64,000 nt of DNA, taken from Eledone cirrhosa (lineage: Eukaryota). The notes under the pieces are model-generated. The model was not told the DNA's origin. It did not search any database and saw only the letters and a list, made by a program, of their open reading frames with translations. Positions 23,666-58,263 of this stretch are shown one piece after another (the first letter of the stretch is position 1; each line of letters begins with the position of its first letter). The position numbers were made by a program, and so were the translations under genes. The DNA lies in NCBI GenBank assembly GCA_964016885.1, contig OZ024740.1:323578001-323642000 (forward strand), read 5' to 3'.

Positions 23666-24456
23666 TATTATATACAATGCTTCAAGTAAACTATAACATT
23701 TTATTAAATATTACATTTACAGCACGCCGTAAGAGTGGACAAACTGCTCATGGGAGTCGAACTTCGTTTCTGTTGTTTACCAGATAATCACAATAACATA
23801 CACATATATTATATACATTTATTTATTTACACTCAAACAGACATATACACATACAAATACACACAAACACATGCACGCACTCTCACATTTGCATAATTAT
23901 ATCTATCTATGCACCTATGTAATATTAACTCAATCAGTTCTCTCTGCTGCACTCTCTCTTTCTCTCTCCCCCCTCCCTCTCTCCCTCTCTCCTCCTCTCT
24001 CTCTCTCCCTCAAATCTAACAGTTTGCCTGACAATATAATTGTCTTACTATCGATCACATTCCTCCACGTATTCATCAATATAACAATCCAGCTATCAAC
24101 TAAACCCTTCCCTCTATCTACCCATCTCTCCTTGTCTCTACATATCCAAGCATTCATTCATCACTTTTCCAACCAACCCATCTATCCATACCACCATCCG
24201 CCCAACAATACATCTACCCATCCACCCATGCACCAAAATATTTATCCCCCAATCCACCCATCCATTCATCCACACTTTCTTCAAGGCCGTCCATTCATGC
24301 ATTCATCCGTGCACCCATCTATCCACCCCTGCACCGATCCCTCCACACCACCAACCCATCCGTCCACCCATTCACAGAAACATTCATCCACACAATCACT
24401 CTACCATTTATCTACATTGCCTACAACCCAGGATGGATCCATCCATCCACACAATC

Positions 24457-25400
24457 ATTCATACAACCAATCCACCCGATCCTTCTATCCAACCAGCCAG
24501 CTATTTATCCATCCGTCTACCGAACCCACCATTCATACAACCAATCCACCCGACCCTTCTATCCAACCACCCAGCTATTTATCCATCCATCTACCGAACC
24601 CACCATTCATACAACCAATCCACCCAACCCTTCTATCCAACCACCCAGCTATTTATCCATCCATCTACCGAACCCACCATTCATACAACAAATCCACCCG
24701 ACCCTTCTATCCAACCACCCAGCTATTTATCCATCCATCTACCGAACCCACCATTCATACAACAAATCCACCCGACCCTTCTATCCAACCAGCCAGCTAT
24801 TTATCCATGAATCTACCGAACCCACCATTCATACAACAAATCCACCCGACCCTTCTATCCAACCACCCAGCTATTTATCCATCCATCTACCGAACCCACC
24901 ATTCATACAACAAATCCACCCGACCCTTCTATCCAACCACCCAGCTATTTATCCATCCATCTACCGAACCCACCATTCATACAACAAATCAACCCGACCC
25001 TTCTATCCAACCACCCAGCTATTTATCCATCCATCTACCGAACCCACCATTCATACAACAAATCCACCCGACCCTTCTATCCAACCACCCAGCTATTTAT
25101 CCATCCATCTACCGAACACACCATTCATACAACAAATCAACCCGACCCTTCTATCCAACCACCCAGCTATTTATCCATCCATCCGCCTAACCCACCATTC
25201 ATACAACCAATCCACCCAACCCTTCTATCCAACCAGCCAGCTATTTATCCATCCATTCACACAACCATTCATCCAACCAATCCACCCCACCCTTCTATCC
25301 AACCACACAACTGTTTATCCATCCATCCGCCTAACCCACCATTCATCTAACGAAACCACCCAACTCTTCTCTCCGACCACCCAGCTATATAACCATTCAT
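24457..25400. repeat. 74-bp minisatellite, about 12-13 copies, degenerate at the edges
   Basis: attcatacaa recurs at 24531, 24605, 24679 and onward. Confidence 0.95.
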
Positions 25401-25595
25401 CCTCCCACCCGACTATTTTCCACTCTGCCAATCACCGTTATTTATCCGCCAGAACCAGTCATCTGTATATATTTTCTATTTAACCGTTAATCTAAGAATT
25501 AATCTATACTTCATATTTTTTTACAAAGCATTTACATATTTCATTTCTTAAATGTTTCAGTTGTGAAGCAGAATTAAAGACCACACATACGCACT

Positions 25596-41632: not shown

Positions 41633-41665
41633 CATATATATATATATAAATATATATGTATATAT

Positions 41666-44600
41666 GAATATAGACATAGAATATTCGAAAATATTCTGTA
41701 TGTTTATAATAAACATTTTGAAGACCTAATCGCTATAGAATAGAATACGTCACGTATTACAATTAGATTCTCGATAAAAGCAAGGGAAGTAATCTACGCG
41801 TTTCATTCTTGTTAGAATTCATCAGGACTACATATCCAGTGCTTTTATCGAGAATGACACAGCTAGAGACTTATAGAATACTTAGCTGTGTACAGGAACT
41901 GGTTTGAAAGAGCGGTTGCCGGTCCGGCAGAAATTAGAAATTGGAATAAATGCTCTGAAATAGCGATATATATGTGAATATAGACATAGAATATTCGAAA
42001 ATATTCTGTATGTTTATAATAAACATTTTGAAGACCTAATCGCTATAGAATAGAATACGTCACGTATTACAATTAGATTCTCGATAAAAGCAAGGGAAGT
42101 AATCTACGCGTTTCATTCTTGTTAGAATTCATCAGGACTACATATCCAGTGCTTTTATCGAGAATGACACAGCTAGAGACTTATAGAATACTTAGCTGTG
42201 TACAGGAACTGGTTTGAAAGAGCGGTTGCCGGTCCGGCAGAAATTAGAAATTGGAATAAATGCTCTGAAATAGCGATATATATGTGAATATAGACATAGA
42301 ATATTCGAAAATATTCTGTATGTTTATAATAAACATTTTGAAGACCTAATCGCTATAGAATAGAATACGTCACGTATTACAATTAGATTCTCGATAAAAG
42401 CAAGGGAAGTAATCTACGCGTTTCATTCTTGTTAGAATTCATCAGGACTACATATCCAGTGCTTTTATCGAGAATGACACAGCTAGAGACTTATAGAATA
42501 CTTAGCTGTGTACAGGAACTGGTTTGAAAGAGCGGTTGCCGGTCCGGCAGAAATTAGAAATTGGAATAAATGCTCTGAAATAGCGATATATATGTGAATA
42601 TAGACATAGAATATTCGAAAATATTCTGTATGTTTATAATAAACATTTTGAAGACCTAATCGCTATAGAATAGAATACGTCACGTATTACAATTAGATTC
42701 TCGATAAAAGCAAGGGAAGTAATCTACGCGTTTCATTCTTGTTAGAATTCATCAGGACTACATATCCAGTGCTTTTATCGAGAATGACACAGCTAGAGAC
42801 TTATAGAATACTTAGCTGTGTACAGGAACTGGTTTGAAAGAGCGGTTGCCGGTCCGGCAGAAATTAGAAATTGGAATAAATGCTCTGAAATAGCGATATA
42901 TATGTGAATATAGACATAGAATATTCGAAAATATTCTGTATGTTTATAATAAACATTTTGAAGACCTAATCGCTATAGAATAGAATACGTCACGTATTAC
43001 AATTAGATTCTCGATAAAAGCAAGGGAAGTAATCTACGCGTTTCATTCTTGTTAGAATTCATCAGGACTACATATCCAGTGCTTTTATCGAGAATGACAC
43101 AGCTAGAGACTTATAGAATACTTAGCTGTGTACAGGAACTGGTTTGAAAGAGCGGTTGCCGGTCCGGCAGAAATTAGAAATTGGAATAAATGCTCTGAAA
43201 TAGCGATATATATGTGAATATAGACATAGAATATTCGAAAATATTCTGTATGTTTATAATAAACATTTTGAAGACCTAATCGCTATAGAATAGAATACGT
43301 CACGTATTACAATTAGATTCTCGATAAAAGCAAGGGAAGTAATCTACGCGTTTCATTCTTGTTAGAATTCATCAGGACTACATATCCAGTGCTTTTATCG
43401 AGAATGACACAGCTAGAGACTTATAGAATACTTAGCTGTGTACAGGAACTGGTTTGAAAGAGCGGTTGCCGGTCCGGCAGAAATTAGAAATTGGAATAAA
43501 TGCTCTGAAATAGCGATATATATGTGAATATAGACATAGAATATTCGAAAATATTCTGTATGTTTATAATAAACATTTTGAAGACCTAATCGCTATAGAA
43601 TAGAATACGTCACGTATTACAATTAGATTCTCGATAAAAGCAAGGGAAGTAATCTACGCGTTTCATTCTTGTTAGAATTCATCAGGACTACATATCCAGT
43701 GCTTTTATCGAGAATGACACAGCTAGAGACTTATAGAATACTTAGCTGTGTACAGGAACTGGTTTGAAAGAGCGGTTGCCGGTCCGGCAGAAATTAGAAA
43801 TTGGAATAAATGCTCTGAAATAGCGATATATATGTGAATATAGACATAGAATATTCGAAAATATTCTGTATGTTTATAATAAACATTTTGAAGACCTAAT
43901 CGCTATAGAATAGAATACGTCACGTATTACAATTAGATTCTCGATAAAAGCAAGGGAAGTAATCTACGCGTTTCATTCTTGTTAGAATTCATCAGGACTA
44001 CATATCCAGTGCTTTTATCGAGAATGACACAGCTAGAGACTTATAGAATACTTAGCTGTGTACAGGAACTGGTTTGAAAGAGCGGTTGCCGGTCCGGCAG
44101 AAATTAGAAATTGGAATAAATGCTCTGAAATAGCGATATATATGTGAATATAGACATAGAATATTCGAAAATATTCTGTATGTTTATAATAAACATTTTG
44201 AAGACCTAATCGCTATAGAATAGAATACGTCACGTATTACAATTAGATTCTCGATAAAAGCAAGGGAAGTAATCTACGCGTTTCATTCTTGTTAGAATTC
44301 ATCAGGACTACATATCCAGTGCTTTTATCGAGAATGACACAGCTAGAGACTTATAGAATACTTAGCTGTGTACAGGAACTGGTTTGAAAGAGCGGTTGCC
44401 GGTCCGGCAGAAATTAGAAATTGGAATAAATGCTCTGAAATAGCGATATATATGTGAATATAGACATAGAATATTCGAAAATATTCTGTATGTTTATAAT
44501 AAACATTTTGAAGACCTAATCGCTATAGAATAGAATACGTCACGTATTACAATTAGATTCTCGATAAAAGCAAGGGAAGTAATCTACGCGTTTCATTCTT

Positions 44601-44786
44601 GTTAGAATTCATCAGGACTACATATCCAGTGCTTTTATCGAGAATGACACAGCTAGAGACTTATAGAATACTTAGCTGTGTACAGGAACTGGTTTGAAAG
44701 AGCGGTTGCCGGTCCGGCAGAAATTAGAAATTGGAATAAATGCTCTGAAATAGCGATATATATGTGAATATAGACATAGAATATTC
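41666..44786 (-). repeat. 310-bp HHR-bearing tandem array, left arm (10 full units plus about 20 bp)
   Basis: gaatatagacatag at 41666, 41976, ... 44766; HHR on the minus strand at 41789-41831 + 310k (k=0..9). Confidence 0.95.
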
Positions 44787-47385
44787 TATTCTATAGCGAT
44801 TAGGTCTTCAAAATGTTTATTATAAACATACAGAATATTTTCGAATATTCTATGTCTATATTCACATATATATCGCTATTTCAGAGCATTTATTCCAATT
44901 TCTAATTTCTGCCGGACCGGCAACCGCTCTTTCAAACCAGTTCCTGTACACAGCTAAGTATTCTATAAGTCTCTAGCTGTGTCATTCTCGATAAAAGCAC
45001 TGGATATGTAGTCCTGATGAATTCTAACAAGAATGAAACGCGTAGATTACTTCCCTTGCTTTTATCGAGAATCTAATTGTAATACGTGACGTATTCTATT
45101 CTATAGCGATTAGGTCTTCAAAATGTTTATTATAAACATACAGAATATTTTCGAATATTCTATGTCTATATTCACATATATATCGCTATTTCAGAGCATT
45201 TATTCCAATTTCTAATTTCTGCCGGACCGGCAACCGCTCTTTCAAACCAGTTCCTGTACACAGCTAAGTATTCTATAAGTCTCTAGCTGTGTCATTCTCG
45301 ATAAAAGCACTGGATATGTAGTCCTGATGAATTCTAACAAGAATGAAACGCGTAGATTACTTCCCTTGCTTTTATCGAGAATCTAATTGTAATACGTGAC
45401 GTATTCTATTCTATAGCGATTAGGTCTTCAAAATGTTTATTATAAACATACAGAATATTTTCGAATATTCTATGTCTATATTCACATATATATCGCTATT
45501 TCAGAGCATTTATTCCAATTTCTAATTTCTGCCGGACCGGCAACCGCTCTTTCAAACCAGTTCCTGTACACAGCTAAGTATTCTATAAGTCTCTAGCTGT
45601 GTCATTCTCGATAAAAGCACTGGATATGTAGTCCTGATGAATTCTAACAAGAATGAAACGCGTAGATTACTTCCCTTGCTTTTATCGAGAATCTAATTGT
45701 AATACGTGACGTATTCTATTCTATAGCGATTAGGTCTTCAAAATGTTTATTATAAACATACAGAATATTTTCGAATATTCTATGTCTATATTCACATATA
45801 TATCGCTATTTCAGAGCATTTATTCCAATTTCTAATTTCTGCCGGACCGGCAACCGCTCTTTCAAACCAGTTCCTGTACACAGCTAAGTATTCTATAAGT
45901 CTCTAGCTGTGTCATTCTCGATAAAAGCACTGGATATGTAGTCCTGATGAATTCTAACAAGAATGAAACGCGTAGATTACTTCCCTTGCTTTTATCGAGA
46001 ATCTAATTGTAATACGTGACGTATTCTATTCTATAGCGATTAGGTCTTCAAAATGTTTATTATAAACATACAGAATATTTTCGAATATTCTATGTCTATA
46101 TTCACATATATATCGCTATTTCAGAGCATTTATTCCAATTTCTAATTTCTGCCGGACCGGCAACCGCTCTTTCAAACCAGTTCCTGTACACAGCTAAGTA
46201 TTCTATAAGTCTCTAGCTGTGTCATTCTCGATAAAAGCACTGGATATGTAGTCCTGATGAATTCTAACAAGAATGAAACGCGTAGATTACTTCCCTTGCT
46301 TTTATCGAGAATCTAATTGTAATACGTGACGTATTCTATTCTATAGCGATTAGGTCTTCAAAATGTTTATTATAAACATACAGAATATTTTCGAATATTC
46401 TATGTCTATATTCACATATATATCGCTATTTCAGAGCATTTATTCCAATTTCTAATTTCTGCCGGACCGGCAACCGCTCTTTCAAACCAGTTCCTGTACA
46501 CAGCTAAGTATTCTATAAGTCTCTAGCTGTGTCATTCTCGATAAAAGCACTGGATATGTAGTCCTGATGAATTCTAACAAGAATGAAACGCGTAGATTAC
46601 TTCCCTTGCTTTTATCGAGAATCTAATTGTAATACGTGACGTATTCTATTCTATAGCGATTAGGTCTTCAAAATGTTTATTATAAACATACAGAATATTT
46701 TCGAATATTCTATGTCTATATTCACATATATATCGCTATTTCAGAGCATTTATTCCAATTTCTAATTTCTGCCGGACCGGCAACCGCTCTTTCAAACCAG
46801 TTCCTGTACACAGCTAAGTATTCTATAAGTCTCTAGCTGTGTCATTCTCGATAAAAGCACTGGATATGTAGTCCTGATGAATTCTAACAAGAATGAAACG
46901 CGTAGATTACTTCCCTTGCTTTTATCGAGAATCTAATTGTAATACGTGACGTATTCTATTCTATAGCGATTAGGTCTTCAAAATGTTTATTATAAACATA
47001 CAGAATATTTTCGAATATTCTATGTCTATATTCACATATATATCGCTATTTCAGAGCATTTATTCCAATTTCTAATTTCTGCCGGACCGGCAACCGCTCT
47101 TTCAAACCAGTTCCTGTACACAGCTAAGTATTCTATAAGTCTCTAGCTGTGTCATTCTCGATAAAAGCACTGGATATGTAGTCCTGATGAATTCTAACAA
47201 GAATGAAACGCGTAGATTACTTCCCTTGCTTTTATCGAGAATCTAATTGTAATACGTGACGTATTCTATTCTATAGCGATTAGGTCTTCAAAATGTTTAT
47301 TATAAACATACAGAATATTTTCGAATATTCTATGTCTATATTCACATATATATCGCTATTTCAGAGCATTTATTCCAATTTCTAA
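44782..47385 (+). repeat. 310-bp HHR-bearing tandem array, inverted right arm (about 8.4 units)
   Basis: Reverse complement of the left-arm unit; HHR at 45008-45050 + 310k (k=0..7). Confidence 0.95.
45008..45050 (+). ncRNA. Minimal type I hammerhead ribozyme of the 310-nt monomer (18 copies in total)
   Basis: gtagtc-CTGATGA(45014-45020)-attc-taacaa-gaat-GAAA(45035-45038)-cgcg-TA-gattac; stem I 6 bp (1 G-U), stem II 4 bp, palindromic ACGCGT; GUA site after 45044. Confidence 0.9.
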
Positions 47386-47403
47386 TATGTATATATATAT
47401 ATG

Positions 47404-53936: not shown

Positions 53937-54298
53937 ATGTATATATATATATGTACAGAGATGGGGAGAACAAAAGTTAGAGAGGGGAGGTAGAGGGAGC
54001 GAGAGGGGTAGACAGATAGATAAGTAGGTAGGTAGATGCATAAATATCGTGTATTAGTGTGTAACGTTGAGTTACTGATGGTTCATTAGTTTGAGCATTC
54101 ATTGATAAAATGTGGTTCTGCCTACCGATGTGGGATCCTACGTTTGGACCTTCACTATGCTCCGTAAGATGAAGTGTGTTAATAATAATAAGGAGCAGGA
54201 TCCAGGTATTAATAAGACATCAATAGTTTCCTTTATACTTATGAATAAATATATTGATGGTTCATTCCTGATCGATTAAATATATATACATTAAATAT

Positions 54299-55165
54299 AG
54301 ATATATTAGATATGTCTCATATGAAATAATACAGCCAATTTTCCACGCAATACTTTTAGTTAGCACCCCGAACGCATAATTGGGAATATAATGACATATT
54401 TCATAATGTTTGTTGAGTGAGTTGGAATTTGGCCGGAGTATCGCTAAAAAGCTTTCTCCGATATTGTATTCATTTATTTACTCTTGGAGCTACAGATTTG
54501 AAAAAATTCCCGGTATAAGGTCAGCATTTCTTTGTTTATTTTTCATATATGAATATTGATTGTTCCTTATATCTCATTCTGTTATTTTGCCCGAGAAAAT
54601 ATCTGTGTGTCATCAAATGTTGTACACACATAGATATTTTTTCAATTTCCAATTGAGTTCTTAGCACGTGGCCTGAATTCCTTTCAGAATTCATTGTCAT
54701 GCGCATGTATTGTTTTTTTGGCGGTTATTTACTTCCTCATTTTTTAAATCAGTTTGAGCACTTCTTTAAAACTGCTGGACTGGCAACCTGACAGATACCT
54801 CAGGCACAGTGGATGATGATTATCGCTAAATACTGATGTTGGTTAGATTATCAATATTAGTATTATTGGGGCACCCACTGATGAATTATAGGAGCCCACT
54901 TGAATATATATCTATTGATGATATACAAGCTCCTACATAAATTGGTATAATTTCACCCAAATTGTAGGAATCCTATAATGAAACGAGACGTCCGTCTGGG
55001 AAGAGATATATTAGATATGTCTCATATGAAATAATACAGCCAATTTTCCACGCAATACTTTTAGTTAGCACCCCAAACGCATAATTGCGAATATAATCAC
55101 TTATTTCCTAATGTTTGTTGAGTGAGTTGGAATTTGGCCGCGCTAAAAAGCTTTCTCCGATATTG

Positions 55166-55170
<5 letters not shown>
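54299..55170 (+). mobile_element. About 705-bp HHR-bearing unit with ~165-bp terminal direct repeat
   Basis: agatatattagatatgtctc at 54299 and 55004; HHR at 54874-55000; 3' end joins (TA)n. Confidence 0.8.
54874..55000 (+). ncRNA. Type I HHR with extended stem II
   Basis: ccca-CTGATGA(54878-54884)-attatagga...tcctataat-GAAA-cg-agacgtc-cg-TC-tggg; GUC site after 54996. Confidence 0.85.
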
Positions 55171-55243
<73 letters not shown>

Positions 55244-55315: not shown

Positions 55316-55420
55316 GGAAAAAATGAAACAAAATTTCATTTCCGACTCTTAGTACTACTGTACGTCTGTATAGATATATGTATGTACGTGTACATACTTA
55401 TATATATATATATATATATA

Positions 55421-56519
55421 TTGTTATACTTGGGGAGGGTCATATTTGTGTAATAATATAGCCAGAATTAATAACAGAACACACTCACTGTTTGGTTGGT
55501 TTTCGCTTTTCGCTTCTGTGTCTTTTATATCGGTAACCTAATTTATTCGGTTCTCAATGTTGCCATTGATTGACCGACGGTCAAAAATAATACAGATACA
55601 ATATAGACACAAACACATATATATAGTTTATCAAAGTTCTTTCGTTGCACATCTGCAACATCGTCAGTGGTGCTATTGTTTCCTCCCGTTACATTGTATG
55701 TCTACGCCATTTTTATTTAGTCTGTCTATATATTTATTTATTTATTTGTTTGTTTATTTTATTTTGTCTTCTTTGCGCATGCGTTTGCGTGTGTGTATAG
55801 TGTTTTGTTTGATGTGTGTTCGTGATCGTATTCTATGTATTCTATGTATTCTATCTTTACTAGTGTGTGTTTATATGTGTTTGTTGTTATTGTGCTTGTG
55901 TATGTATTTATTTATTTATTTATCTATTTATTTATTTATTTATACTTCTCTTAGGTCAGCGCTGTTTGTTTGGGTGTTGTTGTTATTCCATTCATTCTTT
56001 CTGTTTAGTCTTGGCCTTCTAAGTTCTATTTCACTGGTCTCTCTGATTTGCCTATCTGCTGGGTCATTTCTATGTTTAGATATTATTCTAATTTCTATGT
56101 TGTCTATGTTACCGTCGTGTTGTTGGATGGCATGTTCGTATAGTACTGAACCGTTTTTTCGTCCTTTTAGTTCCCCCAGTGTTGGTCTATCCTTTCACCT
56201 ATGCTACGAGCTGTCTCGCCTATGTATGTTGTTGTCATGTTTCTGCAAGTACCCTCTGTACATCTTATGCTATAGACTACGCTTCTAGTTTTACAGTTTA
56301 TCCGGGGGTTTACCTTACATATGATACATTTCCTATTAGTACAGTGGGTTTTCTTAAAAGGGTAGGTTTTGCTGATCAGAGATTTTATGGTTGTTCCTGG
56401 CTTTTCTACCACCTTAATCTTTAAGTGGTCTTTCTCAGGGCCTTTCTACACTGGTTAGCTAATTTCCCTCCAAGGGTAGCGTCCACAAACATGACACTCT
56501 GGTATCTCTGGTTGTCGTA
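55421..56519 (-). mobile_element. Second, 5'-truncated copy of the 19.8-22.0 kb Penelope family (GIY-YIG + 3' region)
   Basis: ORF 56167-56412 (VEKPGTTIKSLISK...YIGETARSIGER) is nearly identical to the 20478 ORF. Confidence 0.9.
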
Positions 56520-57545
56520 TGTGGCTGTGGTCAAGCTAGAAAGAATGTGATTGGCTGCTAATTGTGTATGGTTGATGATATATTTAGTCAGTTTCTACAT
56601 GCTGTCGAAATGTTGGATAAATATACTATATTGGGGCCACCGCGAAGAGGCCACTTTCGGTTATTTGTCGAATATTTCTTCATAAGAGCCTTTCTTCTTA
56701 TAGCTTGGTCTAATTGATTTTTTATATGGTTAATTATGCTAATTGGAAGAAGAAACGGTATATATTTTATCTAATAATTCTAAAGACATGATTTATGATA
56801 TATTGCTCTGATTATTTAATTTATTAATTCTTCATAGAGCTTAAAAGTGACCGGTTGCAACATATATATCTATAACTTTATGTATATGTATATGTAAACC
56901 CTTATATTTAATAATCTCCCGCTAGGTTGAGATTAAATTTGGCGATATTTGGCTGCGCTTTCTAGCAACAAGCCTACCCGCCGTAAGCAGCCAATCACAT
57001 TCTTTCTAGCTTGACCACAGCCACATAGCGATTCTTAGCCATATTTGAATCTAATTTCGGCGCGATCAGGTTGAAAAACTAGATGTCTGATTTTGAGTTT
57101 GTCTCCTGATGAATCCTAACTCAGGACATTCCTATTAATTGGATGTCTAAAAATACGGATGAAACCATGGTAGAGATATAATTACGGTATGTACACATTT
57201 CTTCTAAGTTTAATTTTACACCTAATTGTGTATGATTCATGATATATTTAGTCAGTTTCTACATGCTGTCGAAATGTTGGATAAATATACTATATTGGGG
57301 CCACCACAAAGAGGCCACTTTCGGTTATTTGTCTAAGATTTCTTCATAAGAGCCTTTCTTCTCTAATAGCTTGGTCTAATTGATATTTTATATGGTTAAT
57401 TATGCTAATTGGAAGAAGAAACGGTATATATTTTATCTAATAATTCTAAAGACATGATTTATGATATGTTGCCCTTAGAGCTTAAAAGTGACCGGTTGCA
57501 ACATATATATCTATAACTTTATGTATATGTATATGTAAACCCTTA

Positions 57546-57550
<5 letters not shown>
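56520..57550 (+). mobile_element. About 660-bp HHR-bearing unit, 1.5 tandem copies with a short 5' inversion
   Basis: 56558-56910 repeats at 57222-57550; 56520-56559 is the reverse complement of 56986-57025. Confidence 0.8.
57100..57178 (+). ncRNA. Type I HHR
   Basis: tgtctc-CTGATGA(57106-57112)-atcc...ggat-GAAA-ccatgg-TA-gagata; palindromic helix III. Confidence 0.85.
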
Positions 57551-57581
<31 letters not shown>

Positions 57582-57586
<5 letters not shown>

Positions 57587-58073
57587 ATACTTGGGGAGGG
57601 TCATATTTGTGTAATAATATTGCCAGAATTAATAACAGAACACACTCACTGTTTGGTTGGTTTTCGCTTATGTGTCTTTTATATCGGTTAATTTAATATA
57701 GTCTGTCCTCAATGTTACCATTGACTGACCAAGGGTCAAAAATACAGATACAATATAGTCACAAACACATATATATAGTCTAACAAAGTTCTTTCGTTGC
57801 ACATCTGCAACATCGTCAGTGGTGCTATTATGTTTCCTCCCGTTGTATTGTATGCTTACGCCATCTTTATTTAGTCTGTTTATTTATTTATTTATTTGTT
57901 TATTTTTTTGTGTTCTCTGCGCATGCGTTTGCGTGTGTGTATAGTGTTTTGTTTGATGTGTGTTCGTGTTTGGGTGACTGTGTATTCGTTATTGTATTCT
58001 ATCTTAGTTTACTAGTGTGTGTTTATATGTGTTTGTTGTTATTGTCCTTGTGTATGTATTTATTTATTTATTT
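57582..58073 (-). mobile_element. Third copy (3' end only) of the same Penelope family
   Basis: Reverse complement of about 21540-22031. Confidence 0.85.
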
Positions 58074-58263
58074 ACATACTTATATTTAGGTATGAGCCGT
58101 ACTAAGAGTGAGAAATGAAATTTCGTTTCATTCTGTTCCAGTTATCGTTTTCGGTATGCCCGGCCGACTAACTCACTCGATATGCAAATTAGGCTGCTCA
58201 GCCGTTAATATGCATAAGGAAAGTATATACTTTCAAACGTTCAACCATCTGACAGAAAGGTAT

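Follow-up and report, generated by a model that had tools for sequence, protein, structure and literature searches.

Does the 5' end of an inserted repeat record the point at which a ribozyme cut its RNA template? The question is raised by an insert in the 64,000-nucleotide stretch of the Eledone cirrhosa genome analysed here (the window), which begins a few bases downstream of the site that its own hammerhead ribozyme is predicted to cut. The original prediction held that the reverse-transcribed template had a 5' end made by self-cleavage and was longer than one unit, the insert being a genomic footprint of ribozyme activity in vivo. In-vivo cutting by the hammerheads of Penelope-like elements is stated in the literature to be an open question.

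An insert that begins close to its predicted cleavage site

Throughout, +1 denotes the first base 3' of the predicted cut (window position 54997), and the unit measures 705 nt. The features of the insert, which carries a single ribozyme, are listed in Table 1. Its direct repeat (54299-54435 and 55004-55140) shows 96% identity at a spacing of 705 and extends to 54470 and 55169, past a 6-nt deletion in the second copy. The positions given beforehand for the GUC site (54996), the start of the duplicated segment (55004), the start of the insert (54299) and the 705-nt period were all confirmed, the GTC (54994-54996) lying within a complete type I hammerhead. Moreover, element sequence upstream of 54299, which had been named as a finding that would speak against the prediction, was absent: the flank is AT-rich target, and TGGGAAG, the 7 nt 3' of the cut, does not occur upstream of 54299. 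The 5' boundary of the insert lies at +8, or at +10 if the letters AG belong to the target, and its 3' limit lies at ~55170, inside the (TA)38 run.

The focal copy represents a second-pass end at +8. Because any one end has a chance of ~1% of falling this near the cut (within 8 nt) and the family is large, the end of the focal copy alone is not evidence; evidence for a cleavage footprint is supplied by the population test of 5' ends.

Table 1. Features of the insert and its surroundings (window coordinates; strand given as +, or as a dot where none applies).
Feature	Position	Strand	Basis or remark
5' target flank	54260..54298	.	AT-rich, degenerate (TA)n-like, non-element; clear target-site duplication absent
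Whole insert	54299..55170	+	non-coding repeat of retrozyme type, unit 705 nt; spans 1.24 units, from +8 once around to ~+180
Upstream duplicate segment	54299..54470	+	unit +8..+179
Type I hammerhead	54874..55000	+	sequence, folds, motif scan
Helix I, 4 bp	54874-77 (CCCA) / 54997-55000 (TGGG)	+	sequence
Core CTGATGA (CUGAUGA)	54878-84	+	sequence
Helix II, 9 bp, branched 77-nt loop	54885-93 / 54971-79	+	sequence, folds
GAAA	54980-83	+	sequence
GUC triplet	54994..54996	+	predicted cleavage between 54996 and 54997
RNA hairpin, 9 bp	55003..55023	+	unit +7..+27; rival cause of ends at +5..+10
Downstream duplicate segment	55004..55170	+	stops at the fixed 3' end of the family
(TA)38 microsatellite	55166..55241	.	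target site, 3' junction

A type I hammerhead with a palindromic helix III loop

The conserved core elements CUGANGA, GAAA and NUH are present in type I order, as indicated by the sequence and a motif scan, and the cleavage position (54996/54997) is the one that we assume from the hammerhead consensus. Helix III comprises only 3 bp with a palindromic GACGUC loop. In fold modelling the helix III region alone was unfolded and its self-duplex reached -14.7 kcal/mol; the hammerhead is predicted to be dimer-dependent via this loop. A dimer-type architecture is described for Penelope-like elements in the available sections of PMC4209133. The fold energy of the ribozyme was -29.4 kcal/mol when constrained versus -31.7 kcal/mol when free, and its region gave a fold z of -2.6. 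Among the sampled copies, all 12 core letters were intact in 126 of 146 full ribozymes. Covariation in the core helices amounted to one pair with two double changes, and 10 broken, which is too sparse to back the fold, in a family whose members lie only ~2.5% from the majority sequence.

An Rfam scan of the entire window, hammerhead models included, gave zero matches at gathering thresholds, for which the 77-nt loop II may be responsible. A separate hammerhead-like motif with palindromic CCATGG occurs at 57102-57175 (+) and is related to the family of locus L269.

A dispersed, non-coding repeat family

A DNA search of the 3.0-Gb assembly returned 2457 candidates, 40 of which were scored. Three exact 3'-junction patterns yielded 350, 156 and 164 matches, that is, 670 in all and hence at least 670 insertions. 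Copies diverge from the majority by a median of 2.5%, and the circular unit holds no open reading frame longer than 69 aa (longest stop-to-stop frame). Inserts have a median length of 335 nt and a maximum of 1748 nt, with copies ranging from 0.05 to 2.5 units. The 5' ends are variable and the 3' end is fixed near +180; in alignments, most copies selected without regard to their 3' junction stop at +183..+189. At least three TA units stand at the join in 190 of 250 clean 5' junctions. The fixed 3' end is probably the internal start point of reverse transcription, which, judging from the available sections of PMC11167929, would begin inside the RNA downstream of the cut and so hold this end constant.

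5' ends accumulate immediately downstream of the predicted cut

Copies were taken in genome order by their 3' junction, which avoids choice by 5' end, from the five largest contigs; the first family searches, which were biased to long copies or to copies with +7, were left out of the statistics. The first sample, to which the focal copy belongs, combined the first 100 of 350 and the first 100 of 156 matches (202 anchors). Four same-junction and two near-neighbour duplicates (L194, L202) were dropped, leaving 196 copies: 188 were clean, while 7 rearranged copies and one truncated by the edge of its locus were treated as censored. The replicate, for which the analysis windows were fixed beforehand, took the first 70 of 164 matches (71 anchors, three duplicates dropped, 68 copies, 62 clean). 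The pooled set thus holds 264 copies with 250 clean 5' junctions. Since ends are more frequent where the unit resembles (TA)n, at 15 per 1000 given a 5-nt match as opposed to ~1 per 1000 without any, expected counts were adjusted for microhomology.

Ends at +1..+9 numbered 15 in the first sample against 1.9 expected (p 2e-9), 4 in the replicate against 0.42 (p 9e-4) and 19 in the pooled 264 copies against 2.3 (p 8e-12); backgrounds using one to three bases of context raised the pooled expectation to 2.8-3.3. A strict class lacking the +8 ends and the (AG)n-flanked +6 ends still retained 13 (p <= 5e-5). The edge is one-sided: 19 ends were counted downstream of the cut but 5 over the 9 nt that precede it (p 0.005). 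Five ends fall exactly at +1, against 0.35 expected, or 0.95 when judged against other TGG starts (p 0.003). The pile-up of genomic 5' ends at the cleavage site that had been proposed as a check is therefore present at the level of the family (19 versus 2.3-3.3). Random truncation had been proposed as the opposing outcome, and this too is partly seen: the 5' ends of most copies are spread along the full unit, yet the excess at +1..+9 stands out from them.

The same picture emerged across the genome, where an AT-rich flank is joined directly to +1 in 20 copies versus 666 intact junctions (2.9%). When starts were counted by eye at 28 separate places, drawn from the first 100 among 235 overlapping matches, 9 lay at +1, 14 at +4..+8 and 5 upstream, which makes +1 the commonest start near the cut; the search pattern behind this tally slightly under-samples upstream ends, and the tally overlaps the other samples.

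These ends could instead reflect drop-off caused by structure or sequence, at the +7..+27 hairpin or at the ribozyme fold, on uncut or circular templates, with ATATAT aiding the joining to (TA)n. The 5' foot of the 9-bp hairpin falls at +7, and 13 of the 19 pile-up ends lie at +4..+8 rather than at +1 (ends were seen at +1, 2, 4, 5, 6 and 8, with differing flanks). The commonest single end, +10 (17/250), is largely explained by microhomology, another hot zone lies at the 5' edge of the ribozyme, and two control families are negative (see below), all of which would suit such drop-off. However, the excess at +1 holds against TGG-context rates, +1 is the commonest start in the tally by eye, and the drop upstream of +1 is significant. 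Moreover, the strongest helix II produced no stall, its foot holding 4 ends versus 3.7 expected, and the cDNA hairpin is weak (-2.1 kcal/mol). We consider drop-off of this kind unlikely as the cause of the excess. Further downstream, at +10..+16, 19 ends were observed against 10.4 expected, an excess that is mostly microhomology. Positions 428 and 485 received three ends each, at 2.3-2.5%, a rate similar to that of +1.

A transcription start or another processing site coinciding with the predicted cut would also give a hard 5' edge, and the terminal repeats of Penelope elements contain a promoter and start site, as far as the available part of PMC8557442 describes. A base-exact coincidence with the predicted cut would be needed, however, and L224 and L321 are second-pass copies whose start is exactly +1. 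In addition, the 20 exact +1 copies show no consistent cap-derived extra G at the junction; 19 of them have TATA flanks and one GATA, for which the search pattern selected. A start site of this kind is thus very improbable as the source of the +1..+9 ends.

A founder effect was examined as well, in which a few source loci started near +1 and passed their junction on to daughters. The family does have only a few subfamilies (38 segregating columns), but three haplotypes are represented among the 20 exact +1 copies (by 8, 7 and 5 of them), and the 19 pile-up copies follow the haplotype mix of the family, CAGA alone being missing, while their ends and flanks differ. The haplotype spread of the +1 copies largely rejects a founder effect, and we give it hardly any credence.

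A second hot zone of 5' ends lies at unit 573-588 (window 54864-54879), at the 5' edge of the ribozyme, with 15 ends versus 3.6. It is not a cut site and could be a start site, a splice acceptor or a structural stop. Six ends in the family of locus L242 likewise mark a hot zone ~46-53 nt 5' of the cut.

Most arrivals read through the predicted cut

Within the first pass, 173 of 188 arrivals cross the cut and 15 stop at +1..+9. About 92% of arrivals therefore pass +1..+9, and about one in 12 copies that reach the cut start within these nine bases. Inserts longer than one unit account for 62 of the 264 copies, and one locus has four successive unit junctions. The spacing of read-through junctions was exact in 170 of 171 cases, and tandem units in one insert agreed in their alleles at 391 of 409 polymorphic sites, versus 248 expected; no strongly recurrent difference was found between upstream and downstream copies within inserts. 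Precise junctions and allele agreement together indicate that each insert derives from one haplotype, either as a ligated circle or as an uncut homogeneous multimer. They rule out random template jumping between unrelated monomers, whereas a precise jump within a single lineage would fit them as well.

The rate of truncation approximately doubles after one full unit (p 0.004). This leans towards circular templates, where the enzyme would come back round to its own starting point, although AT-rich microhomology or a truncation rate that rises with length would also fit. A spike of second-pass ends was seen at unit 141-190.

Second-pass ends at +1..+9 numbered 4 of 34 against 0.84 expected (p 0.011; p 0.052 without the focal copy), and on this pass no edge is visible at the cut (4 ends after, 2 before). 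The claim that the template was longer than one unit is therefore borne out only in part: two copies of more than a unit start exactly at +1, but cDNA longer than a unit does not prove a linear template of that length, since a circle yields the same, and the second-pass excess is marginal.

For the focal copy itself, a competing explanation is that rolling-circle or read-through cDNA stopped at the TA-like microhomology at +10, the letters AG coming from a degenerate TA target. The prominence of +10 among single ends and the doubling of the truncation rate, which is expected on a circle, fit this explanation, as do the degenerate TA flank and the finding of one +8 copy (L251) in (GATA)n. The +8 ends, at the foot of the hairpin and beside the TA-like stretch, nevertheless number 4 versus well under 1 expected, and the second-pass excess at +1..+9 also argues against a stop at +10. 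We place this explanation just short of an even chance. The claim of a template 5' end made by self-cleavage thus stands for a minority class of the family through its end excess, and for the focal copy the chances that self-cleavage produced its 5' end are evenly balanced.

Other hammerhead families show no comparable excess

Generality was assessed with two further, unrelated hammerhead families of this genome, seeded by loci L210 and L242 and sampled by sequence from +13 onward (best 40 of 1086 and best 40 of 1874 candidates; two dropped from one of them, an inversion and a duplicate locus). Neither showed an excess at its own cut, with 3 of 78 ends at +1..+9 versus 3.8 expected. The contrast between the focal family (19/222) and these families (3/78) is not significant (p 0.21), so that power is low. 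The putative cleavage footprint is so far family-specific.

We also looked for an autonomous partner with a homologous end, and none was found in the window or in the fetched loci; in several of the latter, the (TA)n run beside the focal copy is also bordered by fragments of Penelope-like open reading frames. A pattern for relatives with shorter-looped ribozymes gave 17 matches, mostly deletion variants of the same family, the partner being absent from them.

A proposed mechanism and its precedents

Given the evidence above, we consider it probable that a protein-less 705-nt retrozyme is copied into (TA)n by a borrowed Penelope-type reverse transcriptase, and that the end excess stems from ribozyme-cut templates. 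The enzyme would nick (TA)n and begin cDNA synthesis within the RNA at about +180. Most templates, as re-ligated circles or uncut multimers, would carry it past the cut, and it would detach at variable places, often where TA-like microhomology occurs. In ~7-8% of arrivals the RNA would end at +1 and the enzyme run off, the join keeping +1 or losing 1-8 nt. The focal copy may, with about even chances, derive from linear RNA in which the upstream ribozyme had cut and the next had not. The low share of cut templates fits a weak, dimer-dependent ribozyme. Somewhat more tentatively, and with less than even confidence, the insertion ends may be regarded as a fossil record of germ-line hammerhead cleavage in Penelope-type retrotransposition, with ~7-8% cut per ribozyme passed, including partly cut linear multimers such as the one that would underlie the focal copy.

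The element behaves like a non-LTR retrozyme or a non-autonomous Penelope-like element, showing testable features of both. As far as the available parts of the retrozyme literature describe (Cervera and de la Pena 2020, PMC7229834; Li et al. 2026, bioRxiv 10.64898/2026.07.22.740005; also PMC8557442 and PMC6765202), metazoan non-LTR retrozymes likewise consist of head-to-tail non-coding units with one type I hammerhead each, their mobilisation by Penelope-like elements has been proposed, and the reported unit range of 51-972 bp (PMC7229834; Li et al. 2026) includes the length found here. Unlike the long arrays described in those parts, the focal family consists of copies of 0.05-2.5 units that are dispersed among (TA)n sites and share a fixed 3' end, and in place of the canonical 6/4-bp helices it has the short helix I and long helix II of the Penelope type. 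The focal copy, with its single ribozyme, falls outside the two-ribozyme definition of 'active' in the available text of Li et al. The available text of neither PMC7229834 nor Li et al. 2026 maps insertion 5' ends against the cut.

In the available sections on Penelope-like elements (PMC4209133; PAc of Anolis, PMC11167929; PMC8557442), a helix I of 4-5 bp, a long helix II and a palindromic helix III loop recur, as do partial-tandem inserts, 5' truncation, AT-rich targets and a 3' end fixed downstream of the cut. The architecture described for PAc in the accessible part of PMC11167929, with the cut upstream of the internal start of reverse transcription and uncut RNA as the main substrate, is matched here, and the read-through of 92% agrees with uncut or re-ligated RNA as the main substrate. 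Unlike the Penelope-like elements described there, the focal family has no open reading frame; the distance from cut to 3' end is ~180 nt versus ~85-92 nt in PAc (computed from the positions available in PMC11167929). No RNA-seq reads ending at the cut are reported for PAc in that part of the source, whereas in the focal family insertion ends pile up there.

A precedent for reading template ends from insertions is provided by R2 with its HDV-like ribozymes, in which, according to the available part of Eickbush 2013 (PMC3774820), the cut fixes the template's 5' terminus and junctions vary by chance microhomology with the target. The joining proposed for the focal family, in which +1 is retained or a few bases are lost, resembles that of R2 (PMC3774820, available part). 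Ribozyme class and element class differ, however, and whereas the R2 cut defines full-length ends in that account, here fewer than one-tenth of arrivals are concerned.

A search of the main texts of openly accessible papers turned up no account of insertion ends accumulating at the hammerhead cut in such elements. The replicated excess of ends at the predicted cut is an indirect in-vivo sign that some templates are cut. The footprint is statistically solid but concerns a minority of copies, and it is likely best explained by self-cleavage in vivo. Its weight is limited, because insertions of R2 have long been read by the same logic, only a minority of copies shows the effect, and two other families are negative. 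The test needs genome sequence alone and, if the explanation holds, mapping of ends could measure ribozyme activity in vivo, family by family, from genomes. The repeat is likely a new Penelope-type non-LTR retrozyme family carrying a minority footprint of cleavage in vivo.

Further repeats in the window and in the flanks

At least 10 other hammerhead-bearing repeat families were seen in the flanks of the fetched copies (L015, L050, L132, L156, L210, L215, L242, L269, L276 and L296), and in most of them (TA)n lies 50-380 nt 3' of the predicted cut. A broken Penelope-like element occupies 55411-58083 of the window (minus strand), with direct repeats ~2150 nt apart and an end that adjoins (TA)n. 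A GIY-YIG fragment (Pfam PF01541) lies within it at 56167-56445, with an E of 0.0035 that falls short of the cut-off, and relatives of the element adjoin several copies of the focal family.

At 41659-47386 lies a 310-bp tandem array in which 10.1 copies precede 8.4 in inverted orientation, with identities of 99-100%. A minimal hammerhead-like motif with palindromic CGCG is present in 18 units, and the whole has the appearance of another array of retrozyme type, very young in age. Finally, a 74-bp minisatellite of 12.8 copies lies at 24456-25401.
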